From: Bacteroidota bacterium
GTDB taxonomy: Bacteria; Bacteroidota; Bacteroidia; UBA7662; CANHCV01
Assembly (NCBI GenBank): GCA_947459245.1
Contig: CANHCV010000002.1
Coordinates: 6,217 to 70,216, forward strand
Direction of reading: 5' to 3'
Length of the DNA stretch: 64,000 bases
Position 1 is the first letter of the stretch, and each line of letters starts with the position of its first letter. The notes below the pieces were generated by a model that saw only the letters and a list, made by a program, of their open reading frames with translations, searched no databases and was not told the DNA's origin. The translations under genes and the position numbers were made by a program. This document shows positions 1 through 37,616 of the stretch, piece by piece.

Positions 1-3000
1 AGGCGGAATTCCCGATTTCAACGTTTCTACTCTTCCCCTTGCTCAACGTGCTAATTTTCCATCTCGCCCTACTTTACCGGGGAACAATACCGGTGTTTCG
101 GGATATTATACCCCGGTAACCTACCAAGGGGCGTACAGTTTTCCATCGAACCAAGTGCCTGCAATTGCACCCGATACGCTGAAGATGACCACAAATACTG
201 GTGAGATTAGCTTTACTCCAACCAACCAAGGTGGTTTCGTAGTTGCCATTGAGTGCTTGGAATACCGGGTGGATCGCATTAACAATGTTACCACCTACTT
301 GGGTTCTACCCGACGTGATTTGCAATTCTTTTTTGATGCAAGTTGCACCGGGAATACAGCTCCCCAGGTTTTTGTAACCGATAGTTTTACCCTTCAAGTT
401 GGAGATACCCTCGACTTTAACGCCGTAGGGATTGATTTTGACCCCTCCCGCGACACGGTGATCATGAGTATTTCAGGCGATATTGTTGGAACCGGATCCG
501 GAAAAGCTTCCGTAACCATTACCCCAGGGCCAAGTCAAGCCATCATGAACGTGCGTTGGATTCCAACGTGCTCCTTCGCTCGAACTGCTCCGTACTTCTT
601 AATCATTACTGCTAAGGATAGTATTTGTGCCGTTACCCAAAAAACGGTTTATATTCGAGTACTACCGAAAGACATTATTCTTCCCCCCAGTTTACGCTGT
701 GCGGCTGTTTTAGGAGATGATTCCATCTCCCTTTCGTGGGTTCGAACCACTTCAGCATCAGCTGATTTTGGGAAGTATTACATTTATCGGAACCTGAATG
801 GTGGAGCTTTTTCACTGATTGATTCCATCCCCTCAAGAACTACGCAAACCTATTTGGATCGTAATGTTTCATTGGCAGATCAAAGCAATGTTTATGGGTA
901 TTTCATGGTGTCTGTAAATAATTGCGGCGAACCTGGATTAACGAGCGATACCATTTTTTCAATTTTACCCTTGGTTCAAAAAATTAGCAGTACCCAATTT
1001 CGGGTCACCTGGAATGAATTGACCACTGCCATCGGTAAAAGGTATGGAAAAATTTACAGGTTATACGAGGACCGAGGAACGGGTTATACGTTGGTACAAA
1101 CAGGAACTCAGCGATCCTTTGTTAGTTCAGGATGTGATTTCAGAATAAAGTACAAAGTAGAAACAACCGATAGCCAAACCACGTGCATTTCAAGTGGATT
1201 TTCTATTTGGAACGCTTTGAAAGATACCATTCGCCCAAGCACTCCTTCCATTACGTTGTTTTCCGTAGATGGAACAGGAAAATCTACAATTACCGTTCAA
1301 AAATCCGATAGCCTCGATGCCATTCGCTACCTGATTTATCGAAGTTCCAACGGTGGTGCGTATGTTCTCATCGATTCGGTCAATCAAACCGGTTTGGGCA
1401 CTTTTGTTTATCGCGATGCTTCCTCGAATCCTTCCTCCATCAAGTATTGCTACAAGGTGGCTGCTCGAGATTCCTGCGGTAATCTTAGTTTTCAATCTAC
1501 CGAAAATTGTGGAATTAAGTTAACGGGTATTCCTGGACACTTTTCTTCGGTATTAACGTGGACACCCTTTTCGAGTCCGTTGCTAAGCGGTTATGTTTTG
1601 CAACGTTGGAATGGCTCATTGTGGGTTACCATTGGTTCGTTTCCCACCACCCAACTGGGTTACGTAGACACTCCACGAGCATGTGGTATTTCCAACACCT
1701 ATCGGGTTTTTGGTACCTATGGCCCTTCCGATAGTTCATTCAGTAATTCGGTGGTGGTTACCCCCATCGACACGATCAAACCCATTTCTCCAAGATTGCT
1801 TTCGGTTTCTGCCATTTCCAATGATTCTGTTCAAGTTACCTTTTTTCGATCTCCCGATCCCCGGGTTAAACTGAGTCGTATTCAAGTAAGTACCAACGGT
1901 GGTGCTTTCTCCAATCTAACTTCATTTACCAATCCTACCACCGATACGTTAAGGTTCTGGCACGTGGGTTTGAACAATGCAGTGAATCAGTATTGTTACC
2001 GCGTTTTGGCTTTCGATTCGTGTTCAAATACCATTTCTGTTCCACTTGATACCCATTGTGTTACCCAACTTTCGGTAACGGGAGGAAGTCGATTGAATGC
2101 TTTAACATGGCCAAAATATCCTTTTTCCACAACCGATAGCGTTAGAATTGAACGGCAGGTTGGGACGAGTTGGACGAGATGGGCTCTTCTACCTGGAAGT
2201 GCAACCTCTTTCAACGATACCGGGATTGTATGTAATTCAACCATTACGTATCGGGTGATTTCGTTTTCTTCAAGCCTTTCGGCCATTTCTGTTATTCGTT
2301 CAGGGACGGTTTTCGATACCACTCGACCAGCATTGGCTTGGATCAATGGGATTTCATACCTCAACGATACGTTAACGCTGTTTTTCCCAACCCATTTTGA
2401 TGTGGCTGGGGTAAATATTTATTTTAAAACCAATGGTGGACCTCGCAGTTTATTGAGAAAATATTACAAGGTTAATTCTTCGAACATTCAAAAAGTAGCA
2501 TTACCCGCATTAACCTCCTCGGTAGATACCTTTGAATTCTCCATCACCACTTTCGATAGTTGTTCCGAATTGGAATCGGTTCAAAGTCCGTGGTATTTCC
2601 CCATTCACTTAAGGGGAACTGGAGGATCATACACCTCAAATTTATCGTTCAATGCCCCTGTTATTCCCTCCAACAATACACCCTCGTATACTCAAGTTAC
2701 TTTAGAAAGATTTTTGAGTCCACTTTTGGGATACCAAACCGTAAGAACCTTGACCAATATTGTTCCGGGTTTCAATTCAATCATTGATACGGTTCCAGAA
2801 TACATCATCAATCCTACCAACATCAACGATACCATTGATATTTTCTGTGGGCAAGGAATTCTTTACCGAATTTCTTATCTGGCCAATGTTCGTACTCCGA
2901 CGTTAGTCTATTCGAATGAAATAGAAACCTTCCCCATCGATACGTTTTATCCGAACAACGTAAACATCATTTATCTGTCGACCAAAGGAACGGATTCCAT

Positions 3001-6000
3001 TGAGGTTCAATGGAAGAAACACATTCGCCCATCGGTAACCAAGTATGTGGTTTACATTTCTCAAAATGGTGGTCCGTTTGTTTCTGTTGATACCGTTTTG
3101 AACAATTTGCCTTTTGTTTATTTCAAAAGGTACGGAAGATACAATATGACCAATACCCAAATTTCTGTTCGTATTGCAGCTTTCGACTCTTGTTCTGGTA
3201 AATGGTCGAGAAATTTTGAAACCCATACCCATTCTTTCCTTACTGGAACATCTCTAGCGGGAAGAAAAACTGCCGTTTTAAATTGGCGCTCTTATCGCGG
3301 TTATGTGCCTGGATTCCGCTACAAAATTATTCGGATGGATCCAGCCAATGGGGTGTCATCCGTTATTGCCAATGTACTGGATACGTTTTATACCGATACC
3401 ACCATGGCTTGTAACAACCCCATTAACTATACCATTTTTATTGATGAGATCAATGGAGATGGAGGATCGGGGTACACCAACACCATTACCTTAATTGGAA
3501 CAGATACCATTGCTCCAAACAAACCCATGATCAATAGCGTATCGGTGCGAGGTTTGAATCGGATTGAAATTTATCCCAATACCAATTTCCAAGACATCGA
3601 TAGTTTCGAGGTTTTTGGGAGAACGAAATTTGGAACATGGTCATCGCTCGGATTTTATAAAGCACAACCCGTGATTTCGGTGAATTTGTCGCCAACGATG
3701 GATTCTATTTTATGCATTCGAATGGTTGGCTTGGATTCTTGTGCAAATAACCGTTCTGTGCCATCCGATGAACATTGTATGATTCAATTAACAGGATCGC
3801 CCCAAAATCTTTCGAACCAATTGAATTGGTCGGCCTATTCGGGTATTTCCACCAACAACAAAATACACATTGTTCAAGAATTGATTTCCGGCGTTTGGCA
3901 AAATATCGATACCACCCTTTCCAATCAACTTCAATACACCCATCTGAATTTACCTTGCGGAATTGAAAAAACGTACCGCATTATGTATTTCGATACCATC
4001 TCATCCGTTTTTTCGTATTCGGATACGATTTCACTCACCCCATTTGACGTTACTCGCCCAAACAAACCATCCATCAACATAGCTACCGTAGTTGATCAGA
4101 ATACCATTTTCATTCGATGGAATGCAAGCACTTCCCCTGACGTGAATCGTTACGAGTTGTGGAAATCGCCATTGGGTACCAATAACTGGGTTTTGGACCA
4201 ATTGGCTTTCTACCGAGATTCGGCTTGGGTTACCGGAAATACCGTTGATACCATTTGGTCTTTCCGTTTGGTGGCCATTGATAGTTGCGGAAACAACCGA
4301 AGTGATACTTCCTTGGTGCAAACGGTTGCAAATATTCAAGGCATTGCCCAAAATTTACAACTTACCCTGTTCCTCAGTAATTACCGCTCAACAAGCCAAT
4401 ATTCGATGACCTTGGAAGAATATAGTCCGGTGAACGGTTGGATTGGTTCGACCACTAAAACGGGATTAACCGATACACTTGTTATCACGAATTTACCTTG
4501 TAACCAGCCATTCACGTACCGATTGGTGATTCAAGATTCGTTGGGGAATACGGTGAGCTATTCCGACTCCATCCAAGTTGTTCCTTTTGATACGATTACT
4601 CCCATTCAACCGGTTATTGAGTATTTAAGCACCAATGGGGTTGATTCCATTTCTCTTTCTTGGAGCGCAAGTCGGTCTTTGAATATTAAAAACTACCACA
4701 TTTACGGCGCTCCATACGGTACTCCCATAGCTTTTTTAGATTCTGTTCCCGATACGGTTCTGAATTATTCATTTTTGGCGAATAATGTTAATTCCCCTTG
4801 GGTCATTTATGTTCTTGCAAAAAATTATTGCAATGAAAAATTATCCGTATTTGAAGATTCTGTTGTAACGTATCATCCATTCCTTTCTCAAACAGGTTGT
4901 GATAAATCCATTCAATTGGATTGGTCCTTGGGGAAATTTGAATTTTTTATTGGAAATGATAGCATTGATGTTTACCGAGGCACGTCATTCAATACCCTAT
5001 CCCTGTTTCAAACCCTTGCACCCGGTACAGTGAATTTTGTTGATACCTCGGTTCGCTTTGGGACCAGGGTTTATTACCAAATCAAGGTCAATTCAGCAAA
5101 TTACCGGGATTATTCGCTTTCTTTTGTTTCAAACGACAGCATCGTTCCTTTGCCGATTCCTAGTATTATTTTAACTTCGGTACTTAAAACAGATCCAACC
5201 AATGGAAGCATTGAAGTAAAATGGAATTCAGTTCAAACAATTCCTTTTTCAAAATCGGTTAATCTTTACACCTCTACCACCATCAATGGCCCAAAAACCT
5301 TATTGGGTAGATTCTCGAGAACCGATAGCTTTTTTGTTTGGAATGGTATCAATACCGAAACCCAATCGTATTACTTCTTTGCTTATTTAGAAGATTCCTG
5401 CGGATTTGTTTCGGAATCCAATGCACCGCATCGCGATATCGATTTCTCGGTGAACAATGCTCAACTGGTGAATCAGATGAGTTGGAATCATTACGAAGGG
5501 GTTCCGGTTACTTCCTATCAGATCGAAGTATTGAACGGGACCACTTGGAATGTTTTTGATGTGGTGAGCAGTAGTCAAAATAGCTATACCCGATTCCCAG
5601 CGCCTTGTAACAACCAAATCACCTATCGTTTGGGTGCGATTTTGGCCAATGGATTGGTGAGTTATTCCGATACCGTTACCGTTCGGGTAATTGATAACAT
5701 TGTGCCCGATACGGCATTGATTTCACAAGCCACCGTTTTGAACGATTCGGTTGTTCAGCTTACCTTTTCCATGGCAGGAGCCGCAGATATTTATGGCTAC
5801 GCCATCCAGCAATCGATCAACGGTGGTCCCGCAACCACTGTTCAATTTGTTCCTCAAGGAACAATTGGTTCGGTGGTGACCATTTTCGATACCGTTAACA
5901 CCTTGAATAATCGTTTGTGTTATTCGGTACTTACCCAAGATAGCTGTTTGAACGTTTCGAAAGGCGATGATTTCTGTGTTATTCAGTTGGAAGGCCTTGC

Positions 6001-9000
6001 CGAAAACCTTCAAAATACGCTTCGTTGGAGGCCTTTTGCCGGTTACCCCATTCAAACGTATGAGGTGGCTGAATGGAATGGAGCTGCATGGAACACCATC
6101 GCCACCCAAAACGGAAATGATACCGATTTTGTACACGCTCCCCTCAATTGCAATCAAACCCGCCAATACCGAATCAAAGGATTGAGCAGCAATCCCGCGC
6201 TCTTTACTTTTTCAGATACCCTTCATTTGACTCCTTTCGACACCGTTCCGCCCGTGGCTCCAACCATCACAGGGGCTTCCGTTATTGCCAACGGAAGCAT
6301 TCAATTGGATTGGTCTCCCGTTGGAGGTGATGTGCGTTCCTATGAAGTGTGGATGAAAACAAGCGGAGTTTCTACTTTCACGAGCATGGGAGTGATTGGT
6401 CCGATTACCACTTTCCGAGCTACCGGTTTGAATACCCTCGATTCTTCCTATTGCTTTTACCTGATTGCCTTGGACACTTGTGCGGCCAATCGTTCCGTTC
6501 CTAGCACCGTTCATTGCGTTTCTCAACTTCGAGGAGTTGCTCAGAACCTTCAAAATACCCTAACCTGGAATGTTTATTCAGGAGTAAATCCTTTAAATAC
6601 CAAAGTTCAAATTTTCCAAGGCACTTGGAGCGATTTTGATTCCCTTTCTGGACTTGCCTCCAGCTATGTTCACGACAGTTTGCCTTGCCGTGTTCCCGTT
6701 ACCTACCGTTTGAAAATGGAACTTCCCAATGGATACCCTTCCTATTCCGATTCCATTACCCTCACGCCGTTTGATACCATTCCGCCAACTCAACCCACCA
6801 TTTTGAGGGCATCGGTTCTTTCCAGTTCTTCGGTTCAGCTCACCTGGGCACAAGGAAATGCCGATATTGGAAATTACGAAATTTGGGTAAAAGCTGCCAA
6901 TCAATCCACGTTTACTTTGGCCCAAACCGTTGGTGCAGTAACCACAGGAATTGTTTCCGGATTGAATACCACCGATAGTTCCTATTGCTTCCGTTTGGTT
7001 GCTTTGGATACCTGCTCCAATAACCGCTCTCCGTTCTCGGTGGATGAATGCGCCATGCAATTGCAAGGAGTTGCGCAGAACCTCCAAACTACGTTGAATT
7101 GGAATGCCTACAGTACCGTTTCTGGTCCGGTTAAATACTACGTTCAACGTCTTCAAGGAGGATTGTGGGGGAATGTTGATAGTACCGTTAATTTCACCAG
7201 TTACATTCATTTTAATGTACCGTGTTTAACCCCCATTCATTACCGAATCATGGCGGTTTATCCAGTGGCCGATACTTCGTTTTCAGACACCATTATTTTG
7301 GTTCCGTTCGATACCATCAAGCCATTGGCCACCTTGTTGAACAGCGCTTCCGTACAAGAAGATGGATCGATCACGGTGCGCTGGAATACATCTTCTAGCC
7401 CCGATGTTCGATTCCATGATGTTTACCGAGCTCCCATCGGCTCAACCGCATTCGTTTTGGTAGGAACCGCCACCGATGTTGACACCTTTAACGACGCTAC
7501 CGTTCCCAATGCAGGAACCCAGCGCTACACCTATCAAGTTGTGGCCATCGATTCGTGTAACCTGAACAACCGATCCATCGAATCCAATCCGCAAACGACC
7601 TTCAACCTTTCTGTAAGCAGTGGAGCCTGCCAACCAGCGGTAACCTTGAAATGGACGTCGTATTCTACGTTCACCAACGGTTTGTTGCGCTATCGAGTTT
7701 GGAGAAGCGCCGGTGGTCCTTGGACGTTGGTCGATTCCGTTTCGGCTTCCGATACCGACTTCATCGATTATACGGTTAATCCTCGATTCTCCTATTGCTA
7801 TCAAGTAGAAGCCGTTTCAAATGGCCAAACCTATTTAGCTACTTCCGACACTTCTTGTCAGGTTCCTCGACTTTACCCGAACCCGAACCCAACAACCATG
7901 TTCGGCATTACCACCACCGTTACAGGGGTAGCCAACGGGCAATCGAAAATTACCTGGAACCGATTCCCATTGAACGATTCTTTGGCGAGGGGATACGTGG
8001 TTTACCACAGCACCACCGGTGTTTGGCCCTATACACCCATCGCTACCGTTTCTCGTCCAAACGATACGGTTTTCTTCCACAACAACATCAATACAGCCGA
8101 TTCAATTCATTATTACACGGTGAAAGTGATCGATACCTGTGGAGCACAATCCGATTCTGCTGCACCATTCCGAACCATTAACTTGAATCTAACCATTGGC
8201 AATGGTGCCATGGTGTTGGATTGGTTACCGGTTTTGAATGATACCGTAAGCGGTTATGAAATTGAACGATCTTCCAATGGTTTGGCATTGGTACCCATCA
8301 CCATTTTATCGCCAACCACCACCCAATACATCGATAGTGCTGTTTCTTGTGGAACCCGTTACAGTTATCGCGTGAAAGGGTTGTATTCGTTGAAACCCAA
8401 TTTCACAACCTTCTCCGATAGCGTTTCTGGAATTGCAAGAGATACCATTCCACCAGATATTTCTGTAGTTGAAAAAGCCACCGTTTCTGTTCCCAATCGA
8501 AACGGTCAAATCGAATTGAGCTTCTACAGCCCAACCCAACAAAACCGAAGCGGTTACAACATTTACCGTAAAACTGGAAATGGAGCATGGTCATTGTTGA
8601 GAACATTCAATACTACCGCATTTGGATTAATCACGACCACCGATTTTGGGGTGAATACCTTGGATAGCACCTACCAATACCGCCTAAGCAGTTTGGATAG
8701 TTGCGGCAATGAATCGCAATTCGGCGAAATTCACAGTCCTTCCAACATTTCGGTTACCGCCGTAAGCCAAGCCAATAACATTTCATGGTCGGCTTACCTC
8801 GGATTTGATTCGTTGATTTATCGCATTGAAAGAAGCATCAATGGGGGGAATTTCCAATTCTTCTACGATCTTCAAGGAACATCTTATGTCGATTCATCGA
8901 TCAAATGCGATACGCAATACACCTATCGGGTTAAAGTGTACGACATTCAAAACCCAACCGTTATTTCTTTGAGCGATACAGCAACGGTGATTGGGATCGA

Positions 9001-10396
9001 TTTAACCGCTCCTGCTACTCCGGTGCTGGGCGTTGTTTCGGTAATCAATACCAATCCGTTCGGTGGAACCGTTCAAGTTAATTTTGCCAACAGCACCTCC
9101 ACCGACGTTCGTTTCCACATCCTCGAAAGACGTACTGCCAATTCTGCGAATTGGAGCGTTCGAGCTCGAATTCCTGCCGGAGGAGCAACCATCTTCAACG
9201 ATTTTGGAAATACTTCCGACAGCATTTATGTGTATCGAGTTTACGCCATCGATACCTGCGGAAACGTTTCTGCATTCTCTGCCCAACACGCTTTCGTTCA
9301 TTTGGAAACAACGCCGTTGAATGAATCGATGCAGTTGAATTGGTCGCGTTACGTTGGTTTCCCTGTTGGAAAATATGATGTAGTTCGCGATGGAAATGTG
9401 ATTGCTTCTTTCTTAGGAGGAAACGACACCAGCATGATCGATACGCAATTGATTTGTACTCAAACCTACCAATATTTCATTCGAACCTATGGGTTGGATC
9501 AATTAACCACATCCCTTTCGAACGTAGAGAACAACTCGCCCTTCGATACCACCGCTCCTTTGAATACCTATTTGCAGGTCGCTTCCGTTGAACGCGGAGA
9601 TGCTTCCAACAAAATTACCTTCCGTGCAAGTACTTCTTTTGATGTGCGCACGTATCAAATTTGGAGAAGAACCAATGGACTTGGTGCGCCAGTTGTGGTT
9701 TACCAAACCACGAATCCCGTTGTTGGATTTACTACGGTCATCGATTCGTTGAACGTGAAGGCCGATGCAGAATCTTATTGCTACAGCATTGTTGCTTTCG
9801 ACTATTGCGGAAACCAAAGTCCTGAAAGCAATTTGGGCTGTACCATGTTGGCAAAAGCCACGTATTCCAAATTGAAATCGACCATCACCTGGACGCCCTA
9901 CAGCCAGTGGTGGGCTGGAGTTGACCACTACGAAGTGGAACGTACCACCGATGGAACCAACTGGATTCAGGTTGCCAATGTGCCCACCTCCGTGAATAAA
10001 TTTATTGATGAAGATTTGCCCGCTGATGCCGGCCAACTTTGTTACCGCGTTATGGCCGTTGAAACTCCTGGCAATTTCAATGAAAAATCGTACTCCAATA
10101 CTGCTTGCGTGGTTCCCGAACCCGTGGTTCATATCCCAACAGCATTTTCACCTGGAACTTCTGCTGGATTGAATGATAATTTCGGACCGGTTGCGGCCTT
10201 CTACGATCAATTTGAATTGACCATTTTCAACCGTTGGGGTGAAAAAATCTTTGAAGGAAAATCGAAAAACGATCGTTGGGACGGAAAACACAAAGGTGAA
10301 TTGGTTCAAACCGGCCTTTATGTTTACCAATTGATTGTGTACGATTTCAACGGTAAACCTTACCGATTCCAGGGAACTCTTTCGGTGGTACGATGA
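1..10396 (+). CDS. Giant cell-surface adhesin-like protein (more than 3400 aa in the window, 5' end outside it). It is built of tandem FN3/Ig-like beta-sandwich domain pairs and ends in a T9SS type-B C-terminal sorting domain (the gliding-motility-associated CTD).
   Basis: The reading frame is open from position 2 with no upstream stop. The ORF-track M at 155 is internal. The C-terminus reads AFSPGTSAGLNDNF...IFNRWGEKIFEG...WDGKHKGE...GLYVYQLIVYDF, which matches the type-B CTD (TIGR04131-like) consensus FSPNGDGxND...fnRwG...WdG...GvY.Y. A module of about 180 aa recurs many times (...LTPFDTxxP... CYRVxAxDSCxNxS ... NLQNTLxWxxY ... YSDxxxLTPFDT). Confidence 0.85.
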   Translation, partial: GGIPDFNVSTLPLAQRANFPSRPTLPGNNTGVSGYYTPVTYQGAYSFPSNQVPAIAPDTLKMTTNTGEISFTPTNQGGFVVAIECLEYRVDRINNVTTYLGSTRRDLQFFFDASCTGNTAPQVFVTDSFTLQVGDTLDFNAVGIDFDPSRDTVIMSISGDIVGTGSGKASVTITPGPSQAIMNVRWIPTCSFARTAPYFLIITAKDSICAVTQKTVYIRVLPKDIILPPSLRCAAVLGDDSISLSWVRTTSASADFGKYYIYRNLNGGAFSLIDSIPSRTTQTYLDRNVSLADQSNVYGYFMVSVNNCGEPGLTSDTIFSILPLVQKISSTQFRVTWNELTTAIGKRYGKIYRLYEDRGTGYTLVQTGTQRSFVSSGCDFRIKYKVETTDSQTTCISSGFSIWNALKDTIRPSTPSITLFSVDGTGKSTITVQKSDSLDAIRYLIYRSSNGGAYVLIDSVNQTGLGTFVYRDASSNPSSIKYCYKVAARDSCGNLSFQSTENCGIKLTGIPGHFSSVLTWTPFSSPLLSGYVLQRWNGSLWVTIGSFPTTQLGYVDTPRACGISNTYRVFGTYGPSDSSFSNSVVVTPIDTIKPISPRLLSVSAISNDSVQVTFFRSPDPRVKLSRIQVSTNGGAFSNLTSFTNPTTDTLRFWHVGLNNAVNQYCYRVLAFDSCSNTISVPLDTHCVTQLSVTGGSRLNALTWPKYPFSTTDSVRIERQVGTSWTRWALLPGSATSFNDTGIVCNSTITYRVISFSSSLSAISVIRSGTVFDTTRPALAWINGISYLNDTLTLFFPTHFDVAGVNIYFKTNGGPRSLLRKYYKVNSSNIQKVALPALTSSVDTFEFSITTFDSCSELESVQSPWYFPIHLRGTGGSYTSNLSFNAPVIPSNNTPSYTQVTLERFLSPLLGYQTVRTLTNIVPGFNSIIDTVPEYIINPTNINDTIDIFCGQGILYRISYLANVRTPTLVYSNEIETFPIDTFYPNNVNIIYLSTKGTDSIEVQWKKHIRPSVTKYVVYISQNGGPFVSVDTVLNNLPFVYFKRYGRYNMTNTQISVRIAAFDSCSGKWSRNFETHTHSFLTGTSLAGRKTAVLNWRSYRGYVPGFRYKIIRMDPANGVSSVIANVLDTFYTDTTMACNNPINYTIFIDEINGDGGSGYTNTITLIGTDTIAPNKPMINSVSVRGLNRIEIYPNTNFQDIDSFEVFGRTKFGTWSSLGFYKAQPVISVNLSPTMDSILCIRMVGLDSCANNRSVPSDEHCMIQLTGSPQNLSNQLNWSAYSGISTNNKIHIVQELISGVWQNIDTTLSNQLQYTHLNLPCGIEKTYRIMYFDTISSVFSYSDTISLTPFDVTRPNKPSINIATVVDQNTIFIRWNASTSPDVNRYELWKSPLGTNNWVLDQLAFYRDSAWVTGNTVDTIWSFRLVAIDSCGNNRSDTSLVQTVANIQGIAQNLQLTLFLSNYRSTSQYSMTLEEYSPVNGWIGSTTKTGLTDTLVITNLPCNQPFTYRLVIQDSLGNTVSYSDSIQVVPFDTITPIQPVIEYLSTNGVDSISLSWSASRSLNIKNYHIYGAPYGTPIAFLDSVPDTVLNYSFLANNVNSPWVIYVLAKNYCNEKLSVFEDSVVTYHPFLSQTGCDKSIQLDWSLGKFEFFIGNDSIDVYRGTSFNTLSLFQTLAPGTVNFVDTSVRFGTRVYYQIKVNSANYRDYSLSFVSNDSIVPLPIPSIILTSVLKTDPTNGSIEVKWNSVQTIPFSKSVNLYTSTTINGPKTLLGRFSRTDSFFVWNGINTETQSYYFFAYLEDSCGFVSESNAPHRDIDFSVNNAQLVNQMSWNHYEGVPVTSYQIEVLNGTTWNVFDVVSSSQNSYTRFPAPCNNQITYRLGAILANGLVSYSDTVTVRVIDNIVPDTALISQATVLNDSVVQLTFSMAGAADIYGYAIQQSINGGPATTVQFVPQGTIGSVVTIFDTVNTLNNRLCYSVLTQDSCLNVSKGDDFCVIQLEGLAENLQNTLRWRPFAGYPIQTYEVAEWNGAAWNTIATQNGNDTDFVHAPLNCNQTRQYRIKGLSSNPALFTFSDTLHLTPFDTVPPVAPTITGASVIANGSIQLDWSPVGGDVRSYEVWMKTSGVSTFTSMGVIGPITTFRATGLNTLDSSYCFYLIALDTCAANRSVPSTVHCVSQLRGVAQNLQNTLTWNVYSGVNPLNTKVQIFQGTWSDFDSLSGLASSYVHDSLPCRVPVTYRLKMELPNGYPSYSDSITLTPFDTIPPTQPTILRASVLSSSSVQLTWAQGNADIGNYEIWVKAANQSTFTLAQTVGAVTTGIVSGLNTTDSSYCFRLVALDTCSNNRSPFSVDECAMQLQGVAQNLQTTLNWNAYSTVSGPVKYYVQRLQGGLWGNVDSTVNFTSYIHFNVPCLTPIHYRIMAVYPVADTSFSDTIILVPFDTIKPLATLLNSASVQEDGSITVRWNTSSSPDVRFHDVYRAPIGSTAFVLVGTATDVDTFNDATVPNAGTQRYTYQVVAIDSCNLNNRSIESNPQTTFNLSVSSGACQPAVTLKWTSYSTFTNGLLRYRVWRSAGGPWTLVDSVSASDTDFIDYTVNPRFSYCYQVEAVSNGQTYLATSDTSCQVPRLYPNPNPTTMFGITTTVTGVANGQSKITWNRFPLNDSLARGYVVYHSTTGVWPYTPIATVSRPNDTVFFHNNINTADSIHYYTVKVIDTCGAQSDSAAPFRTINLNLTIGNGAMVLDWLPVLNDTVSGYEIERSSNGLALVPITILSPTTTQYIDSAVSCGTRYSYRVKGLYSLKPNFTTFSDSVSGIARDTIPPDISVVEKATVSVPNRNGQIELSFYSPTQQNRSGYNIYRKTGNGAWSLLRTFNTTAFGLITTTDFGVNTLDSTYQYRLSSLDSCGNESQFGEIHSPSNISVTAVSQANNISWSAYLGFDSLIYRIERSINGGNFQFFYDLQGTSYVDSSIKCDTQYTYRVKVYDIQNPTVISLSDTATVIGIDLTAPATPVLGVVSVINTNPFGGTVQVNFANSTSTDVRFHILERRTANSANWSVRARIPAGGATIFNDFGNTSDSIYVYRVYAIDTCGNVSAFSAQHAFVHLETTPLNESMQLNWSRYVGFPVGKYDVVRDGNVIASFLGGNDTSMIDTQLICTQTYQYFIRTYGLDQLTTSLSNVENNSPFDTTAPLNTYLQVASVERGDASNKITFRASTSFDVRTYQIWRRTNGLGAPVVVYQTTNPVVGFTTVIDSLNVKADAESYCYSIVAFDYCGNQSPESNLGCTMLAKATYSKLKSTITWTPYSQWWAGVDHYEVERTTDGTNWIQVANVPTSVNKFIDEDLPADAGQLCYRVMAVETPGNFNEKSYSNTACVVPEPVVHIPTAFSPGTSAGLNDNFGPVAAFYDQFELTIFNRWGEKIFEGKSKNDRWDGKHKGELVQTGLYVYQLIVYDFNGKPYRFQGTLSVVR
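660..9600 (+). repeat. In-frame tandem coding repeats, about 17 units of roughly 535-600 bp (about 180 aa each, two beta-sandwich domains per unit), inside the giant adhesin gene
   Basis: The unit-boundary motif (T/P)PFDT(I/V)xP recurs at about 1222, 1775, 2318, 2931, 3493, 4039, 4580, 5133, 5693, 6230, 6765, 7303, 7860, 8440, 8998 and 9540. Paralogous stretches are recognisable at the DNA level, for example ggagttgctcagaaccttcaaaatac at about 6535 versus ggagttgcgcagaacctccaaactac at about 7070. Confidence 0.7.
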
Positions 10397-11232
10397 AAAT
10401 TATCATCGCAGGAGGAACCGGATTTGTTGGTCGAGCTTTGGCGAAAGAACTCCAAGCGAAACAACACCGCGTTGAAATCATTTCTCGAAAAACCCATGGA
10501 AATTGGGATTCAGCCGATGCGCTGGATCCCAATTTTTTTTTAGAGGCCGATGTCGTAATTAATTTGGCAGGAGCTGGAATTGCCGACCGTCGTTGGTCTG
10601 CCGAACGAAAATCGGAAATCATTCAATCTCGGGTGCAGACCACCCAAAAATGGGTGAATCTTTTGCAACACACATCGCGTCCAATAACGTTCATCCAAGC
10701 ATCAGCGGTTGGGTATTACGGAAGTGAAATTCACCTTCCACCCGCCGATGAAGAAACCTCACCCGGCAACGATTTTCTGTCGGAAGTATGTGTGAAATGG
10801 GAGGCACCGTTGGCATCTCTTTCCAATCCAAACGTTCGGTGGTGCATCACTCGCTTTGGGGTGGTAACCGATGAAGGGGGAGGAGCGGTGAAAAAAATGT
10901 TGCCTTTGTTCCGCCTTGGTTTTGGCTCGGCGGTTGCCCCGGGCAAACAGTGGATGAACCCGGTTTCCTTGGCCTCGGTGGTAAATGTTTTGATCCAACT
11001 GATTCAGCGCCCCGAGTATTCAGGGGTTTTCAATGTGGTTCAACCGCAAAATTATACGGCCGAAGGATTCGCGAAGCAATTGGGAAGAAAACTAAATCGG
11101 CCGGTTTGGTTTCCCAAAGTACCCGCTTGGTTGATGCGGTTGGTTTTTGGAGAAATGGCCGATGTATTGGTAAAAGGTAGAAAAGTGAAGTCCAAAAGAC
11201 TTCCTTCTTCCTGGTTTATTGATCCATTTTAA
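10393..11232 (+). CDS. NAD-dependent epimerase/dehydratase of the TIGR01777 / YfcH (SDR39U1, DUF1731-containing) family
   Basis: N-terminal Rossmann motif MKIIIAGGTGFVGRAL and overall YfcH-like architecture of about 280 aa. The ATG overlaps the TGA stop of the giant adhesin gene (ATGA at 10393-10396). Confidence 0.8.
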   Translation: MKIIIAGGTGFVGRALAKELQAKQHRVEIISRKTHGNWDSADALDPNFFLEADVVINLAGAGIADRRWSAERKSEIIQSRVQTTQKWVNLLQHTSRPITFIQASAVGYYGSEIHLPPADEETSPGNDFLSEVCVKWEAPLASLSNPNVRWCITRFGVVTDEGGGAVKKMLPLFRLGFGSAVAPGKQWMNPVSLASVVNVLIQLIQRPEYSGVFNVVQPQNYTAEGFAKQLGRKLNRPVWFPKVPAWLMRLVFGEMADVLVKGRKVKSKRLPSSWFIDPF

Positions 11233-11990
11233 TGCGCTTCCAATAATTTTTGAGCAAAAACATCGGGCAACTCAGTTTGCCGGATGGCAGCAGCAGCCTT
11301 ATCAACTGGATATTCAAAGCGTTGAAATTCAACCTTGAAGCTGTTTTCGTTGGAATAGGGAAGGGTAACATCCAAATCTAAAATCACATAGCCGCCGCGA
11401 GGGTCTCCGTCCTTGGGTTTTCCTACACTCCCCAAATTGATGGCGTGAAACCTTTTTTCTTCAGAAAATAAGGTGCGATGGTAAGGAATATGGGTATGTC
11501 CGAAACACATCACATCGCAATGAGATTGCTCGAAAATGCGGATTAAACTTTTCTCTTCCCGATCTTCAAACAAATATTCATTCACCTTGCGCGGACTCCC
11601 GTGCACCAACATCATTCGTTTGGATTCATCCGCAAACGGCAAGTCCAGGTGAATGTGTTGTGGAAGTTGCCGCAAATATTTCCGCTCTTCGTTGCCAATA
11701 TTGGCATTGGTGAAGGCGATGGATTTGGCTCCATTGGCGCGGTCTTCATCGGTTTTATAAGCGCATCCGCAATCGTCGCTGTTTAATCCCACTCCAACGT
11801 CGTAATTCCCAGCGATGCAGGGAATTTTTCTTTTTCGAATTTCTTGAACAACTTCATTGGGCCAAGGGGCATAACCAACCAAATCGCCTAGGCAGTACCA
11901 AGCATCAATATTTTGTTCCTCAACATGTTGGAAAAAGGCCTGCAAGGCAGGAAGATTGGCGTGAATATCGCTGAAAAGGGCTATTCTCAT
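11229..11990 (-). CDS. Calcineurin-like metallophosphoesterase (YfcE/MPP family)
   Basis: Motifs [17 protein letters not shown] and GHTH are typical of metallophosphatases. The ATG overlaps the acr3 stop (ATGA at 11987-11990). Confidence 0.75.
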
Positions 11991-13036
11991 GAGAAGTATT
12001 TCTTTTTAAACCAAAAACTCAAATTCACCAAAAGAATGAGGGCAGGCACTTCAATCAATGGACCAATCACGCCAACAAAAGCCTCTCCAGAGTGAATACC
12101 AAAAACTCCTACCGCCACGGCAATAGCGAGTTCAAAATTGTTTCCCGTGGCGGTGAATGCGATGGAGGCCGAACGCGAGTAATCTGCTCCGTAAAATTTT
12201 CCAACAAAAAAACTTACCACGAACATGATGAGGAAATATAGAACGAGTGGGATGGATACTTTGATAACGTCGAAAGGAATTTCTACGACCGATTTGCCCT
12301 TGAGGGAAAACATGTAAACGATGGTAAGAAGAAGGGCAACCAACGTAATCGGCGAAATTTTTGGTAGAAATTCCTGTTGGTACCAGCTTTCCCCATTGAA
12401 ACGAATCATGAGTTTTCTCAAAAAGTAACCAACCACAAAGGGAATGCCGAGGTAAATTCCCACCGATGTAGCGACATCAAGCATGGGTATTTGGACGGAA
12501 TCGGAAGATATTCCCAATCCATTCAAAAGAACATCCGTAAAAAAGTAAGTATAAACCGAATAGAGTAAAACCTGAAAAATGCTGTTCAACGCAACCAACC
12601 CCGCGGCATATTCTCGATTCCCTTCCGCCAAATCGTTCCACACCACCACCATGGCAATGCACCGAGCTAACCCAATGAGAATAAGTCCAACCATGTAATG
12701 CGGTTGGTCCGATAAAAAGAGAACGGCCAAACCAAACATTAAAATGGGACCAATAATCCAGTTGAGGAGAAGGGATGCGAGAAGTACTTTTTTATTGGAA
12801 AAAACCTTTCCCATTTCCTCGTAACGCACTTTCGCCAAAGGCGGAATCATCATAAGGATAAGGCCGATGGCCAAAGGAATGTTGGTAGATGTTCCTTCTG
12901 AGGAAGAGAAATAAACGGAATTTTGAGGGATGATGTTCCCCAGAAAAATTCCCAATCCCATGGCTAAGAAAATCCAAAGGGTTAGGAAACGATCAAGAAA
13001 GCCGAGTTTTTTTCGTTGCGAATGAGTGGTTTCCAT
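11987..13036 (-). CDS. acr3: Arsenite efflux transporter of the ACR3 family
   Basis: A polytopic membrane protein of 349 aa carrying the ACR3 signature [18 protein letters not shown] (conserved Cys). It lies directly downstream of arsR. Confidence 0.9.
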
Positions 13037-13042
13037 GGAGGG

Positions 13043-13384
13043 TTAGCATTTTTTCTTTTTGATCTGTTTGGCCGCATCTTTGAAAAAATCCCTCAAATCC
13101 TTGAAGATTTCCCGATTCAAGCAATAACAAACCGAGGTACCCGAAACGGTGCCTTGAATGATTCCCACCTGTTTTAATTCCCGAAGGTGTTGGGAAATGG
13201 TGGCTTGGGCCAATGGAAGTTTAATCACCAGGTCTCCGCAAATGCAGGTTTCCTGTTCGAGAAGATATTGAACAATGGCCAAACGAGCGGGATGGCCAAG
13301 CGCTTTTAGTAGATTTGCCCGATCAACCAATTCAGAATCAAACGGCTCTGTTTTCGTAATTCCCATAATGTTGCTTTGATGCAA
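13043..13384 (-). CDS. arsR: ArsR-family metalloregulator
   Basis: HTH signature LAIVQYLLEQETCICGDLV, equivalent to the ELCVCDL As(III)-binding motif. It is followed by acr3. Confidence 0.85.
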   Translation of the reverse strand: MHQSNIMGITKTEPFDSELVDRANLLKALGHPARLAIVQYLLEQETCICGDLVIKLPLAQATISQHLRELKQVGIIQGTVSGTSVCYCLNREIFKDLRDFFKDAAKQIKKKKC

Positions 13385-13437
13385 TATTACGATGGAATAA
13401 AGATTTAGAGAACACTCTTTTTGGAATTAAGAAAAAA

Positions 13438-14085
13438 TTAATGATTTGAGATGCGGTAGCGGAGGTATTTGATGGGAATTCCCATGGCCAAAAACTTGGT
13501 TTCAAAAACGGTTTTGATGGAAAGGATATCATCAACAAAAGATTCTTGGTACAAATCTTTGGTGAGTACGTCGATGGTATAGCCGCGCTCTTGGGCAACC
13601 TCTACTGAAAAATCAAAAAGCATTTCGTTGTCGGTTTTTAAATGGACGATGGCTTCTTTTTTCAGGAATTGGGTGTAAAGGTCCAACATCCGGTTGGAGG
13701 TTAACCGTTTGCTGATTTTTGATTTTTTAGGCTGTGGATCGGGGAAAGTGATCCAAATCTCACTGATTTCTTCGGGTGCGAAATAGGTATTGATCTTTTC
13801 AATTTGCGTTCGAAGGAAAGCAACATTTTCAAGTCCTTGCTCTTGGGATTGGGTTGCTCCATGCCACATCCGTGCACCTTTAATGTCGATCCCAATGAAA
13901 TTCTTCTCGGGAAAACGTTGCGCGAGGCCAATGGTATACGTGCCGGTTCCGCAACCGACTTCGAGCACGATGGGGTTTTCGTTTTTAAAGAAGGTGTTCC
14001 ACGTGCCCGCAACGTTTTCTGGATATTCGAAAACATGCCGCATTTCTTTCATTTCGGCAAAGTGCTTGAGTTTTCTTCGAGACAT
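13438..14085 (-). CDS. trmB: tRNA (guanine46-N7)-methyltransferase
   Basis: SAM-binding motif LEVGCGTG and TrmB-like length and conservation (NFIGIDIKG, ISEIWITFPDP). Confidence 0.85.
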   Translation of the reverse strand: MSRRKLKHFAEMKEMRHVFEYPENVAGTWNTFFKNENPIVLEVGCGTGTYTIGLAQRFPEKNFIGIDIKGARMWHGATQSQEQGLENVAFLRTQIEKINTYFAPEEISEIWITFPDPQPKKSKISKRLTSNRMLDLYTQFLKKEAIVHLKTDNEMLFDFSVEVAQERGYTIDVLTKDLYQESFVDDILSIKTVFETKFLAMGIPIKYLRYRISNH

Positions 14086-14091
14086 ATTGGT

Positions 14092-14120
14092 AAAAAAAAA
14101 TCCCGCATGTGCGGGATTGT
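14092..14120 (-). terminator. Rho-independent terminator downstream of tRNA-Val, readable in both directions
   Basis: Perfect palindrome tcccgcatgtgcggga at 14104-14119, followed on the minus strand by a T9 run (plus-strand A9 at 14092-14100). Confidence 0.5.
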
Positions 14121-14122
14121 TG

Positions 14123-14197
14123 TGGGAGCTAAGGGATTCGAACCCCTGACCCTCTGCTTGTAAGGCAGATGCTCTGAACCAGCTGAGCTAAGCTCCC
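14123..14197 (-). tRNA. tRNA-Val (anticodon TAC)
   Basis: The reverse complement GGGAGCTTAGCTCAGCTGGTTCAGAGCATCTGCCTTACAAGCAGAGGGTCAGGGGTTCGAATCCCTTAGCTCCCA folds as a cloverleaf. It has a D-loop AGCTCAGCTGG, an anticodon loop CTTACAA and a T-loop GGTTCGAATCC. Confidence 0.85.
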
Positions 14198-14301
14198 TTG
14201 TGTTTGGGACTGCAAATATGAAACAAAATTTTAAAAAAAACAAGACGCTAAAATTTTTTTTTTCGCCTAATTTTACCTTAACTCAAGTAAACCAACAGCC
14301 T

Positions 14302-14763
14302 ATGCAAAAAATGCTACACATTTTTTTCCTTTTCTTTCTTCTAATGGGCTGCAATAACGCTAATCAGGCGGATGCGGAGTACTTTAGTGAAGAGCTGGAA
14401 TCATCAGCGGAGATCGATTCGCCGTTGGTAACAAGAGACCAAACCATTCAAAAGGTAACCGCAAATCAATTGGTTCAAATGCTTGCACTGGATAAGGCCT
14501 ATTTAATCGATAGCCGTTCTGTTGAGGAATACAACGAAAAAAGAATTGGCAATGCCATTCATTTCAATATCGACCAAAAAGAAGAAGCGGAATCGAAGTT
14601 TAAAAGTTTAGATCAAACCCGAACGTTTTACATCTACGGTAAAAATGAAGCTCAAATTCAGAATTTGGGGAAATGGCTCATCAAACAAGGTGTAAATCAG
14701 GTTTACATTTTAGACGGTGGCCTTCAAGCCTGGGAGGAAGCTCAACTTCCTACGATTCATTGA
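14302..14763 (+). CDS. Rhodanese-domain lipoprotein
   Basis: Lipoprotein signal peptide MQKMLHIFFLFFLLMGC. The C-terminal rhodanese fold reads YLIDSRSVEEYNEKRIGNAIHFNI...FYIYGKNEAQ. The ORF-track start at 14200 is probably an upstream extension. Confidence 0.65.
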   Translation: MQKMLHIFFLFFLLMGCNNANQADAEYFSEELESSAEIDSPLVTRDQTIQKVTANQLVQMLALDKAYLIDSRSVEEYNEKRIGNAIHFNIDQKEEAESKFKSLDQTRTFYIYGKNEAQIQNLGKWLIKQGVNQVYILDGGLQAWEEAQLPTIH

Positions 14764-25870: not shown

Positions 25871-26620
25871 ATGTCTGCCATTTTAAACCACCTTGCGCAA
25901 CTCAAAGAAAATCAAGAGTCCGAATTGGTGGTTTTAATCGACCCCGACAAATCCGAGCAGAAAGCCATTCACCGATTGGTGGAAGGTTGTTTGCAAGCTC
26001 AAATTTCCACCCTTTTGATCGGCGGAAGTTATGTTCCACAAGGGAAAACCGAGCAATTGCTGAAGTGGATCAAAGAAGTTTCTACCGATGTGCAATTGGT
26101 GCTTTTCCCCGGTCACCCCGATCAAATTTCTTCCCAAGCAGATGCTTTATTGTTGCTTTCTTTGCTCTCCGGAAGAAATCCCGATTACCTCATTGGCCAC
26201 CATGTTCAATCGGCCAATCGCCTTCGTGAAAGCGGCTTGGATTTAATTCCCACTGCGTACATTTTGATCGATGGAGGGAAAACCACGGCGGTTCAATACA
26301 TCAGCAATACCCAACCTATCCCGCCCCAAGAAATTGCGTTGGCCTGTTCTACGGCTCTTGCCGGCGAACAATTGGGAATGAAATTGGTGTACATGGATGC
26401 CGGCAGTGGAGCGTTGTTGCCCATTCCAACCGAATTGATCGAGGAAGTGAGCAAAACCACGGCTCTTCCTTTGGTGGTTGGAGGCGGAATGCGCACCCCA
26501 CGAGAACTACAAGATCGAGCCATTGCCGGTGCGCAATGGTTGGTGGTTGGTAACGCCCTCGAAAAAGACCCGGATCTTCTTCAAGAAATGGCCTTGGCCA
26601 TCCCTCAGCGTACCCGTTAA
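25871..26620 (+). CDS. Geranylgeranylglyceryl / heptaprenylglyceryl phosphate synthase family protein (PcrB/GGGPS homologue)
   Basis: TIM-barrel GGGPS signatures (LLIGGSY..., YMDAGSGA..., VVGGGMRTP). The ATG at 25871 removes the overlap with the divergent upstream gene. Confidence 0.75.
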   Translation: MSAILNHLAQLKENQESELVVLIDPDKSEQKAIHRLVEGCLQAQISTLLIGGSYVPQGKTEQLLKWIKEVSTDVQLVLFPGHPDQISSQADALLLLSLLSGRNPDYLIGHHVQSANRLRESGLDLIPTAYILIDGGKTTAVQYISNTQPIPPQEIALACSTALAGEQLGMKLVYMDAGSGALLPIPTELIEEVSKTTALPLVVGGGMRTPRELQDRAIAGAQWLVVGNALEKDPDLLQEMALAIPQRTR

Positions 26621-28866
26621 CGCCGCTTGATCAGCAATTTGGATCCCTTATTTTTCCACTGGATAAAGTACAAACCTTCGGGAATTCCACCCACTTCCAA
26701 TTGAGCCGATTCCCCCAAAGGAATCTCCCATGAATGAATGAGTTGACCGGTGAGATTGAACAGGTTGATGGGCGCTTTCGGCCCTTGGGGTTGAATGATT
26801 TCTACTCGATCGGTGGCCGGATTTGGGAATAATTGAAGTGGAGTTACCTCTTGTTTTGGGAGTTGTTTGGTGCTTAAAGAACCCGCACGATTCCTTAAAC
26901 CAATGATTCCTCCATTGTTGGTGCCTAAAATCAAATCGGGAAGCGAATCTCCATTCCAATCGGCAACGGCCATGCGGAAACCATCTCCAAAATCGGCCTC
27001 ATCCACCGAGGCACCGCCCAACGAATTGGAGTAATAAAAAACAGAATCGTAGCGGTGCAAAATCGTATCGAAAATGTTATCAAACAAAATCAAGCGACCA
27101 CCCATTTCACCCACGGCCAAATCCCACTTTCCATCGGCATTGAAATCGGCCAAACGTGGGGTCGTTCTCGCCGGAAAAATGCTGTTCAAATCCAATCCAC
27201 CAAGGGTATCCGGCGCATTGGCTTGAAAAATGGGTGCGGTTTTCGTACCGGTATTTCGGTAGTAAAATACATGTCCATCAATGTCTCCCGAAATCAAATC
27301 CAACAACCCATCTTTATCTACATCAATCAATTGTGGAGCTGCATCGTAACCCAATTGGATGTTTTGAAAGGTGTCATTCTGCAAGGTGAATTCCACTTTT
27401 CCAGCAACCAAAGACCCGGAATAATATTCAATCAAGCCACTCGAATTTCCTGCCAATAAATCGGGAATGGAATCTCCATTCAAATCTCCGAACGTTGGAA
27501 TGAGATTCTTTCTGTTCGTTTGACCGATGATGTTGGAATAATTGGTATCCAGCCAATGGTAGCCGGTTGCCCCATATTCCAAAAGTTGAAGCGCTGCTTT
27601 GTTGTTCGCATTTTGAGTAAAGATGAATAGATCCAAATCCCCATCACGGTCGTAATCCAAAAATTCTGGAGATGACCACCAAGGAAAGTCGAGCATAGAA
27701 GCCGGAAACCAATTGGTTTCGCGCAAGGTAAATGTTTCTGGAGACGTAGGCGATACAGCGGTGTTTTCGTAATACCATCTACTGTTGTACCCCTTCGATT
27801 TGTTGTCGAATGGGTTCACCACCAAATCCATTTTTCCATCTTGGTTCACGTCCACTCGGCTAGCATGCGGGTAAATGGACCCTTTGTAAGGAATTTGATA
27901 ATTGGGGAAAGACGTATCCAATCCACAACCCATCGAATCTACACCGGTTAAAGAGGAATTTTGGATAAAAATCAAATTGGGATAAGAAATGTCGGAAAGT
28001 AAAATATCGTATTTCCCATCTTTATTTTGGTCGAAAATGGTGAGTGTTCCTCCCGAGTGAGTGGTTTTTTCGGGTTTTTCTTCTTGGGCGCGAAGTCCGC
28101 ATGGGCAAGACCGTGAGGTGTCACGGAAACAATTGGCATCCAAGCAGAGTCGAAGGTCATTGGTGATGAAACTTTCTTGAAACCGGCCCCAACAATTGGA
28201 TGAAATGAGAAAATCAAGGGTGTCGCGCCGGTTATACCGATCCATGCTCAAGTTTTTGTACCAAATGATGGATGGCGAAAAAATTTCCCATGCCAAAACA
28301 TCTACATCCCCATCGCCATCAATGTCAACCACCTCAGCATTGTCGGTGGCATTCACGTACATGTTGGTAGGGAAGGGTGAAAACTGAGTTTTAACAGGAA
28401 TGGCTGCGGTTTTTAACGTAAAGATGGGATAGGCATTTCCGGCCGGGGTGGTGTTCCGAAATAGTTTGGTTTCTCCGTTGTTGTTGGTGAAAAGATCCAA
28501 CCGCCCGTCTCCATCGTAGTCGGCAAAATCTACCCAATCTTGTACGAAAGGGAAGAATTTTTGATACTGAGGAGCAAATTCGTATTGGGTTTGCCCACCC
28601 ATGTTTCGGTTGAGGTAAACCGAAAGGATGGAATCTTGCTTTTCAAAACTGACGATATCTTGAGACCCATCTCCGTTAACATCCATGTTGAAAAACTGAT
28701 TGCAGGTTGCCCCACCGTTCCAAGCCGCTTGGAGAAACAAACCGGAGGTATCGAATACCGGAAGTGGCGCTACTCGATCAAACAAAAAAGGAAACCGCCC
28801 CGATTGCGCCACTAAGAATTGAGAAAACAAGAGTAGAAATGCCGATAAAAAGAGTCGCTTCTGCAT
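26617..28866 (-). CDS. FG-GAP / VCBS-repeat beta-propeller protein with a T9SS type-A C-terminal sorting domain
   Basis: Many D-x-D-G-D / FG-GAP-like repeats (DVNGDGSQD, DYDGDGRLD, DIDGDGDVD, DYDRDGDLD...). The C-terminus is a Por_Secre_tail (LQLFPNPATDRVEI...LYFIQWKNKGS). Confidence 0.8.
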   Translation of the reverse strand: MQKRLFLSAFLLLFSQFLVAQSGRFPFLFDRVAPLPVFDTSGLFLQAAWNGGATCNQFFNMDVNGDGSQDIVSFEKQDSILSVYLNRNMGGQTQYEFAPQYQKFFPFVQDWVDFADYDGDGRLDLFTNNNGETKLFRNTTPAGNAYPIFTLKTAAIPVKTQFSPFPTNMYVNATDNAEVVDIDGDGDVDVLAWEIFSPSIIWYKNLSMDRYNRRDTLDFLISSNCWGRFQESFITNDLRLCLDANCFRDTSRSCPCGLRAQEEKPEKTTHSGGTLTIFDQNKDGKYDILLSDISYPNLIFIQNSSLTGVDSMGCGLDTSFPNYQIPYKGSIYPHASRVDVNQDGKMDLVVNPFDNKSKGYNSRWYYENTAVSPTSPETFTLRETNWFPASMLDFPWWSSPEFLDYDRDGDLDLFIFTQNANNKAALQLLEYGATGYHWLDTNYSNIIGQTNRKNLIPTFGDLNGDSIPDLLAGNSSGLIEYYSGSLVAGKVEFTLQNDTFQNIQLGYDAAPQLIDVDKDGLLDLISGDIDGHVFYYRNTGTKTAPIFQANAPDTLGGLDLNSIFPARTTPRLADFNADGKWDLAVGEMGGRLILFDNIFDTILHRYDSVFYYSNSLGGASVDEADFGDGFRMAVADWNGDSLPDLILGTNNGGIIGLRNRAGSLSTKQLPKQEVTPLQLFPNPATDRVEIIQPQGPKAPINLFNLTGQLIHSWEIPLGESAQLEVGGIPEGLYFIQWKNKGSKLLIKRR

Positions 28867-37614: not shown

Positions 37615-37616
37615 TC

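Follow-up and report, generated by a model that had tools for sequence, protein, structure and literature searches.

Which gene reduces arsenate in an arsenic-resistance operon that has no recognisable arsenate reductase (ArsC) gene? This question is raised by a 64,000-nucleotide stretch of a Bacteroidota genome (contig CANHCV010000002.1, positions 6,217 to 70,216; hereafter the window), in which three tightly packed minus-strand open reading frames (ORFs), namely arsR, acr3 and a metallophosphoesterase gene, fill positions 11229-13384. A preliminary description made from the sequence had proposed this gene set, and the ORF listing, direct reading of the sequence and profile matches all confirm it. 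The same description had left two readings of the third gene side by side, a non-canonical enzyme acting on arsenate or organo-arsenicals and an unrelated passenger. We found that the former is favoured, by 59% identity to the arsenate reductase Car1 and by the cysteine pair Cys74/Cys76, and that the passenger reading does not stand. On the evidence of its sequence, the metallophosphoesterase is very probably an arsenate reductase of the Car1 type within an arsR-acr3-car1 resistance operon, and the arsenate reductase that the operon seems to lack would thus be the phosphoesterase gene itself.

The metallophosphoesterase and the missing ArsC

The product of the third gene matches the Pfam families Metallophos_2 (E 4.4e-22) and Metallophos (E 6.2e-16). 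Over residues 1-252 it is also 59% identical and 73% similar (E 5e-110) to a protein (P0140 in our set) that carries the NCBI name "arsenate reductase Car1 [Rufibacter tibetensis]". We reached this protein through a plasmid search that gave homologues from Hymenobacteraceae (53-61% identity), of which the Adhaeribacter swui copy was used as the query that led to P0140; the plasmid search for R. tibetensis Car1 itself returned no Rufibacter plasmid. The window protein and Car1 align without a gap across the stretch GNYD-x9-CGCAYKTD, and Cys74-Gly-Cys76 of the window protein has the same numbering as the C-G-C of Car1.

In an alignment of 23 homologous sequences (alignment A1), C74-G75-C76-A-Y-K is invariant, and so are the metal-ligand residues D8, H10, D36, N62, H130, H165 and H167, with the motifs of the binuclear site conserved as DIH (8-10), GD (35-36), GN (61-62), VHG (129-131) and GHTH (164-167). 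In a neighbour-joining tree, the window protein belongs to the Car1 clade, whose members combine GNY with CGC, and stands apart from paralogues that have GNH and lack CGC. Collectively, the window protein unites the features by which Car1 can be recognised computationally: the fold and metal motifs, Cys74 and Cys76, homology to Car1 and membership of its clade, and an ars context.

The function of Car1 itself is recent knowledge. PMC12124457 describes Car1 as an As(V) reductase for whose activity both Cys74 and Cys76 are essential, and cites this function to Shen et al. 2024 (Mol Microbiol 122:201). According to the same source, anaerobic arsenic methylators have metallophosphoesterase genes in their ars operons, and these show about 40% identity to Car1. 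In a 2022 account of the Deinococcus indicus ars cluster (PMC9807832), the function of the gene was given as unknown and an ATPase was suggested. Such ars-linked metallophosphoesterase genes were unexplained before 2024, and the function of Car1 has been published since.

An AlphaFold2 model of the window phosphoesterase, computed with alignment A1 as input, has a mean predicted local distance difference test score (pLDDT) of 89.4 and a predicted template modelling score of 0.88. The loop that carries C74-G-C76 (approximately residues 70-80) is less confident, with mean pLDDT values of 84 for residues 61-70 and 72 for residues 71-80. A Foldseek search of the PDB with this model yielded generic metallophosphoesterases and no solved structure of the Car1 type; the matches were 3rqz (26% identity), SapH and the Pyrococcus structures 1nnw and 2gju, with E values from 4e-19 to 2e-14 and template modelling scores of 0.70-0.78. 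The sequence search agrees, with 3rqz as the best match of solved structure (E 4e-20).

No recognisable ArsC had been seen near the operon in the preliminary description, and we found this to hold across the whole 64 kilobases (kb) by motif scan, Pfam comparison and tblastn. A six-frame scan of the window for the CX5R[ST] P-loop of the low-molecular-weight protein tyrosine phosphatase (LMW-PTP) type, the N-terminal motif of the glutaredoxin (Grx) type of ArsC and the HCX5R motif of the Cdc25 type gave no match in an ORF of ArsC size. The one match in a long frame lies inside an ORF of 749 residues (26617-28866), and the remaining matches fall in short ORFs that were dropped by greedy gene selection. 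When ten small ORFs of the window were compared with Pfam, nine fell into unrelated families (DinB, MGMT DNA-binding domain, DsbA, TonB_C, RNase HII, O-methyltransferase, RecX, PIN and HemD) and one had no match. The tblastn queries were five LMW-PTP-type ArsC or ArsC-like proteins from related loci, an E. coli Grx-type ArsC, DUF6428 and ArsM; no query scored better than E 0.04 in the window, apart from a fold-level match of ArsM to TrmB. The window phosphoesterase has no CX5R(S/T) P-loop, HNPxC-type motif or HCX5R, and it belongs to no classical ArsC family.

Two other proteins of the window were considered and rejected. A rhodanese-domain protein (14200-14763) is not an Acr2-like or Cdc25-type reductase, because it has no cysteine beyond that of its lipobox. 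This protein, encoded on the plus strand with a likely start near 14302, appears to be a lipoprotein whose rhodanese domain is presumably catalytically inactive, as it reads YIYGKNEAQ in the loop where the catalytic cysteine usually stands. A DsbA-like protein (38085-38789) was rejected as a part of the system, since it lies 25 kb away and the intervening genes have no apparent link to arsenic.

Related ars clusters and the GNY-CGC signature

The family is large, with more than 8000 homologues at E ≤ 1e-10, and those of this set that carry organism names are all from Bacteroidota. The top 120 are all at least 60% identical to the window protein, and among the matches listed the closest homologues in reference genomes are about 65% identical to it. 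The exact window protein was found only on metagenome contigs; on the longest one read, of 97 kb (ENA ERZ27263785), the neighbouring genes are identical as well.

We surveyed the genomic context of the family with one genome per species, in at least 80 loci, using tblastn and clustering of ORFs; 77 of these loci have a called gene of the CGC type, that is, one encoding the Cys-Gly-Cys pair. ArsR, Acr3 or ArsM is encoded nearby on the same strand in 75 of the 77. The preliminary description had called for a homology search and for a look at the gene in other ars islands, with the prospect that relatives might carry it apart from ars genes; what emerged is a Car1 homologue that stays with them. 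ArsR is present at 64 of the 77 loci and Acr3 at 57, directly adjoining the CGC-type gene at 38. The order of genes is variable, including arsR-acr3-metallophosphoesterase, arsR-metallophosphoesterase-acr3, arsR-arsM-metallophosphoesterase and arsR-arsM-aquaporin-metallophosphoesterase, suggesting functional linkage rather than accidental synteny or a merely positional association.

Further neighbours in the related clusters are thioredoxin-type ArsC, ArsM, ArsN1, ArsN2, ArsO, DUF6428 and a GcvH-like protein. A gene of the LMW-PTP type is missing from the cluster at 47 of the 77 loci, and a Grx-type ArsC motif was seen in none of the surveyed loci. Plasmids carry comparable arrangements, with arsR-arsN2-arsM-metallophosphoesterase-acr3 in Adhaeribacter, arsR-metallophosphoesterase-arsM in Paraclostridium and arsC-arsM-arsR-arsH-metallophosphoesterase-arsC in Rubrobacter.

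Two of these neighbours recur often enough to be recorded in their own right. The gene for the GcvH-like lipoyl-carrier protein (NF002270, 165 bits) lies in 11 ars-cluster loci (L012:6535-6912, L049:5792-6169 and nine others), mostly between the Car1-type gene and acr3. A DUF6428 gene follows arsR in 41 of 80 loci, the R. tibetensis car1 locus included (L037:1750-2223, L083:7377-7949); one example ends in a cysteine-rich tail (…SSCCTPGGGCC) and has no NCBIfam match, and the gene is absent from the window.

In well-studied metallophosphoesterases, the histidine of the GNH motif is the general acid that protonates the leaving group. We found that GNY(D) replaces GNH in 72 of the 77 Car1-type copies, the motif search having given no match in the other five. 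This replacement of GNH by GNY in the Car1 clade fits a weakened or demoted phosphoesterase chemistry. In 27 of the 77 clusters, the Car1-type gene is followed immediately by a second metallophosphoesterase gene (L003:5774-6523, L007:5761-6417, L008:5775-6512 and 24 others). With 40-47% identity to the window protein, this paralogue retains GNH(D/E) in 27 of 27 cases and does not have C-G-C; the window contains no such downstream second gene.

The combination of GNYD and CGC is common to Car1 and to the ars-cluster proteins of Paraclostridium (Bacillota) and Rubrobacter (Actinomycetota), and a Halorubrum homologue that lies outside an ars context has GNHD and lacks CGC. It is possible that the switch from GNH to GNY together with the C-G-C pair reflects one ancient recruitment of a phosphoesterase to redox chemistry, now found in at least three phyla.

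A plasmid of Picosynechococcus sp. PCC 7117 (L091:4001-4825) encodes a 34.5%-identical homologue without ars context, beside another metallophosphatase. It has G-C-W-D at the position of GNH/GNY and C-E-C at that of C-G-C, and perhaps represents another redox-type version of this scaffold.

Proposed pathway and alternative explanations

The two partners of the phosphoesterase gene are assigned by profile matches and by the motifs that the preliminary description had named, CIC in ArsR and GLARCIAMV in Acr3, both of which are real. ArsR matches Pfam HTH_5 (PF01022, E 1e-10) and the NCBIfam ArsR/SmtB model NF033788 (68.6 bits, cut-off 55). Its C-I-C corresponds to Cys41 and Cys43, in the numbering of a 107-residue product, and lies in the region of the DNA-binding helix, where E-T-C41-I-C43-G-D-L provides the first two cysteines of the R773-type C-x-C-(x2)-C site without the third. 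Work on the R773 ArsR reportedly found two cysteines to be enough for induction. Further cysteines of the window ArsR are C80, C82 and C107. Acr3 scores 419.1 bits over residues 11-339 against the equivalog model TIGR00832 (cut-off 282.8) and matches Pfam SBF with E 1.7e-56. Its sole cysteine, Cys126, lies in the R-C-I-A-M-V segment of GLARCIAMV, and Glu329 lies in the I-E-V-P segment of PLIEVPAL. In a Corynebacterium Acr3, mutagenesis is said to have found both the conserved cysteine of R-C-I-A-M-V and the glutamate of E-V-P to be needed for transport.

Under the Car1 assignment, the region would be a minimal, self-sufficient operon for resistance to both arsenate and arsenite; here we infer catalytic activity, thioredoxin coupling and regulation for this organism. 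Arsenate would enter the cell as a phosphate mimic and would be bound by the Car1-type enzyme at its binuclear metal site, a legacy of the phosphoesterase ancestor. Cys74 would attack the arsenate and Cys76 would resolve the adduct, releasing arsenite and leaving a Cys74-Cys76 disulfide, which thioredoxin would re-reduce. For Car1, the abstract of Shen et al. 2024 is said to describe this chemistry of the metal site and of Cys74-Cys76, with recycling by thioredoxin. The arsenite would then be exported by Acr3, as suggested by its equivalog-level family membership, and ArsR, to judge from its family, would repress the operon until arsenite binds Cys41 and Cys43.

Several observations weigh against this reading. 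An identity of 59% between two sequences does not prove that the window protein has the activity of Car1, and the basis of the mechanism is a secondary citation (PMC12124457), an NCBI protein name and an abstract. A canonical thioredoxin-type ArsC is encoded beside the Car1-type gene at 18 of the 77 loci, and a long LMW-PTP-like gene at nine more; the co-occurrence with ArsC suggests that Car1 and ArsC may not be fully redundant and that Car1 could have an additional or different role. A canonical arsC could also sit elsewhere in the genome, beyond the 64 kb of the window. Finally, no promoter or operator was identified upstream of arsR.

How, then, do other explanations of the gene compare with a Car1-type reductase? 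That it encodes a housekeeping phosphodiesterase of the YfcE or Ap4A-hydrolase type, placed downstream of acr3 and with no role in arsenic metabolism, would agree with its generic best profiles (Metallophos_2, with YfcE below the cut-off) and with its nearest solved structures, the uncharacterised 3rqz and the Ap4A hydrolase SapH. We regard this as barely credible in view of the 59% identity to a characterised arsenate reductase and of a start codon that overlaps the acr3 stop. A passenger is also at odds with ars clusters of several gene orders at 75 of the 77 homologous loci, and with the exchange of the GNH histidine for tyrosine in 72 of 77 genes of the Car1 clade against its retention in 27 of 27 adjacent paralogues. 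A role in arsenic metabolism could still be hydrolytic, with the metal site cleaving arsenate esters or organoarsenicals, such as arsenylated metabolites, and not serving redox chemistry. All motifs of the binuclear metal ligands are kept, many related clusters encode ArsM, ArsN1, ArsN2 and ArsO, and canonical ArsC at 18 of 77 loci hints that the two are not redundant. Yet the invariant Cys-Gly-Cys is a redox and not a hydrolytic feature, reported as essential for the reductase activity of Car1 in PMC12124457; GNY removes the histidine that usually protonates the leaving group, and the operon of the window has no organoarsenical genes. A hydrolase of this kind is therefore unlikely.

The vicinal cysteines allow two further proposals that tie the protein to Acr3. 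A C-x-C pair binds arsenite, and a protein that appears to be translationally coupled to acr3 here, and adjoins it at 38 of 77 loci, might act as an arsenite chaperone or regulatory partner of the pump, handing over arsenite as ArsD does for ArsA/ArsB. This is very unlikely, as at the other 39 loci the gene and acr3 do not adjoin, and some clusters lack Acr3 entirely and instead encode ArsM, alone or together with an aquaporin; full conservation of a catalytic metal site would be needless for a chaperone, and the characterised homologue, Car1, is an enzyme. The second proposal keeps the Car1-type reductase and adds that it is coupled physically or kinetically to Acr3, passing the arsenite held by Cys74/Cys76 straight to the pump. 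We consider such coupling doubtful; if true, it would explain the translational coupling seen here, the adjacency to acr3 in about half of the loci and the retention of Car1 beside ArsC. The reading that we prefer remains a Car1-type arsenate reductase acting between arsenate uptake and arsenite export.

Layout of the region, annotation and known systems

The coordinates of the operon are given in Table 1. The arsR stop codon is followed, after 6 nucleotides, by the start of acr3, as read directly. Direct reading likewise upholds the earlier statement that the phosphoesterase ATG overlaps the acr3 stop as ATGA, an arrangement that suggests translational coupling of the two genes. For arsR, an ATG at 13366 is a likelier start than the TTG that opens its ORF, and it yields the 107-residue product; a product of this length was called by independent gene callers on an identical metagenome contig and on a related contig.

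Table 1. Features of the arsR-acr3-metallophosphoesterase region (window positions)
Feature	Position	Strand	Description
arsR	13043..13384	-	ArsR/SmtB-family metalloregulator; ORF opens at TTG 13384
acr3	11987..13036	-	ACR3-family arsenite efflux permease, 349 residues
car1-type metallophosphoesterase gene	11229..11990	-	253 residues, calcineurin-like fold
Cys74-Gly-Cys76 codons	11763..11771	-	redox cysteine pair of Car1-type enzymes
ATGA overlap, acr3 stop / car1-type start	11987..11990	-	direct reading: ttctcATGAgaa, ttctcATGAgaatag
trmB-arsR intergenic region	13367..13437	-	71 nucleotides; presumed ars promoter/operator site

The ars promoter and operator presumably lie in the gap between trmB and arsR. 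A sigma-70 scan upstream of arsR gave no consensus match, a negative that is uninformative because Bacteroidota promoters differ. A search for inverted repeats that could serve as an ArsR operator, across 13360-13460, returned only trivial AT palindromes.

On the 5′ side of arsR, the same strand carries trmB (13438-14085), itself preceded by a tRNA-Val gene with anticodon TAC (14122-14197). Directly after the tRNA stands a strong terminator-like hairpin, AATCCCGCACATGCGGGATT, with a T run (14118-14099), so that tRNA and hairpin together (14099-14197, minus strand) lie just upstream of trmB. On the other side, downstream of the operon, lies a convergent gene for a yfcH-type epimerase, which shares 4 nucleotides with the 3′ end of the phosphoesterase gene. 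The guanine-plus-cytosine (GC) content is even across the operon region, and in a relative with a phosphoesterase 80% identical to that of the window, trmB-arsR-acr3-metallophosphoesterase stands at the same chromosomal site, followed by one extra sulfatase gene. Horizontal acquisition of the operon was considered on these two grounds, and no sign of it was found; the even GC content and the conserved site indicate that the operon looks like a stable chromosomal feature of the lineage and not a recent island.

Other features of the window stand apart from the operon. A giant plus-strand ORF (155-10396) encodes more than 3400 residues with repeated immunoglobulin-like modules and a C-terminal domain of the CHU_C type, and it overlaps the yfcH-like gene by 4 nucleotides (10393-10396). 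On the 97-kb metagenome contig (L084), the corresponding gene call has 3685 residues and is cut by the end of the locus. Together with the taxonomy of the phosphoesterase homologues, this CHU_C-domain protein assigns the uncultured host to Bacteroidota. A transfer-messenger RNA gene (50185-50551, minus strand) specifies the tag peptide GNNNYALAA. At 37366-38039 on the plus strand, an ORF of 82 residues is followed, with stop and start overlapping, by a PIN_3-domain protein of 142 residues; the pair looks like a toxin-antitoxin module.

Enzymes of the Car1 type are poorly served by current annotation. NCBIfam release 20.0 contains no Car1 model; R. tibetensis Car1 scores 43 bits against the YfcE subfamily model, below the cut-off of 56.25, and the window phosphoesterase also falls below that cut-off. 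Where the sources give family names, these are generic ("metallophosphoesterase family protein", "YfcE family phosphodiesterase", "predicted phosphodiesterase"). Surveys of genomes and metagenomes that count arsC miss such clusters, and the potential for arsenate reduction is therefore undercounted; at 47 of the 77 sampled loci, the cluster has no LMW-PTP-type arsC. A usable rule for Car1-type genes would require an ars context and a metallophosphoesterase fold in which GNY replaces GNH and C-G-C stands near residues 74-76, and would close this annotation gap. The biology is already known, and the value is chiefly practical.

Compared with metallophosphoesterases of solved structure, namely 3rqz from Sphaerobacter thermophilus, the Ap4A hydrolase SapH/Spr1479 (3qfm), PF1291 (1nnw) and PH1004 (2gju), the window protein has the fold and the metal scaffold in common. 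These proteins are just 22-27% identical to it and none is reported as a reductase; in 3rqz, no C-G-C aligns with window residues 74-76.

The thioredoxin-coupled ArsC of the LMW-PTP type (pI258, B. subtilis; TIGR02691) has the same role in the pathway, the production of arsenite from arsenate for export by an efflux pump. By analogy, the two enzymes would follow the same logic, with one cysteine as the nucleophile, another to resolve the adduct, and thioredoxin as the reductant. They differ in architecture, the fold of ArsC being that of a Rossmann-like PTPase, whereas the Car1 type is a binuclear metallophosphoesterase sandwich with a metal site and without a CX5R P-loop.

A pair of metallophosphoesterase genes, mrme1 and mrme2, was described in 2023 in an ars operon of Mucilaginibacter gossypii and called uncharacterised (PMC10652896). 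The window protein corresponds to MrMe1, which has CGC and whose gene comes shortly after acr3; its identity to the Mucilaginibacter copies is about 60%. MrMe2, with GNH and no CGC, is the counterpart of the second paralogue seen in 27 of the 77 loci and has no equivalent in the window.

The closest parallel among characterised systems is that of R. tibetensis 1351. There the car1 locus reads arsR-DUF6428-car1-acr3, an order that differs from the arsR-acr3-car1 of the window with its ATGA overlap and no DUF6428 gene. The two clusters have arsR and acr3 in common, and neither contains arsC. Car1 (259 residues) and the window protein (253 residues) are 59% identical from end to end, and are alike in their metal-ligand motifs, in the GNYD variant of motif III and in the loop C74-G-C76-A-Y-K-T-D.

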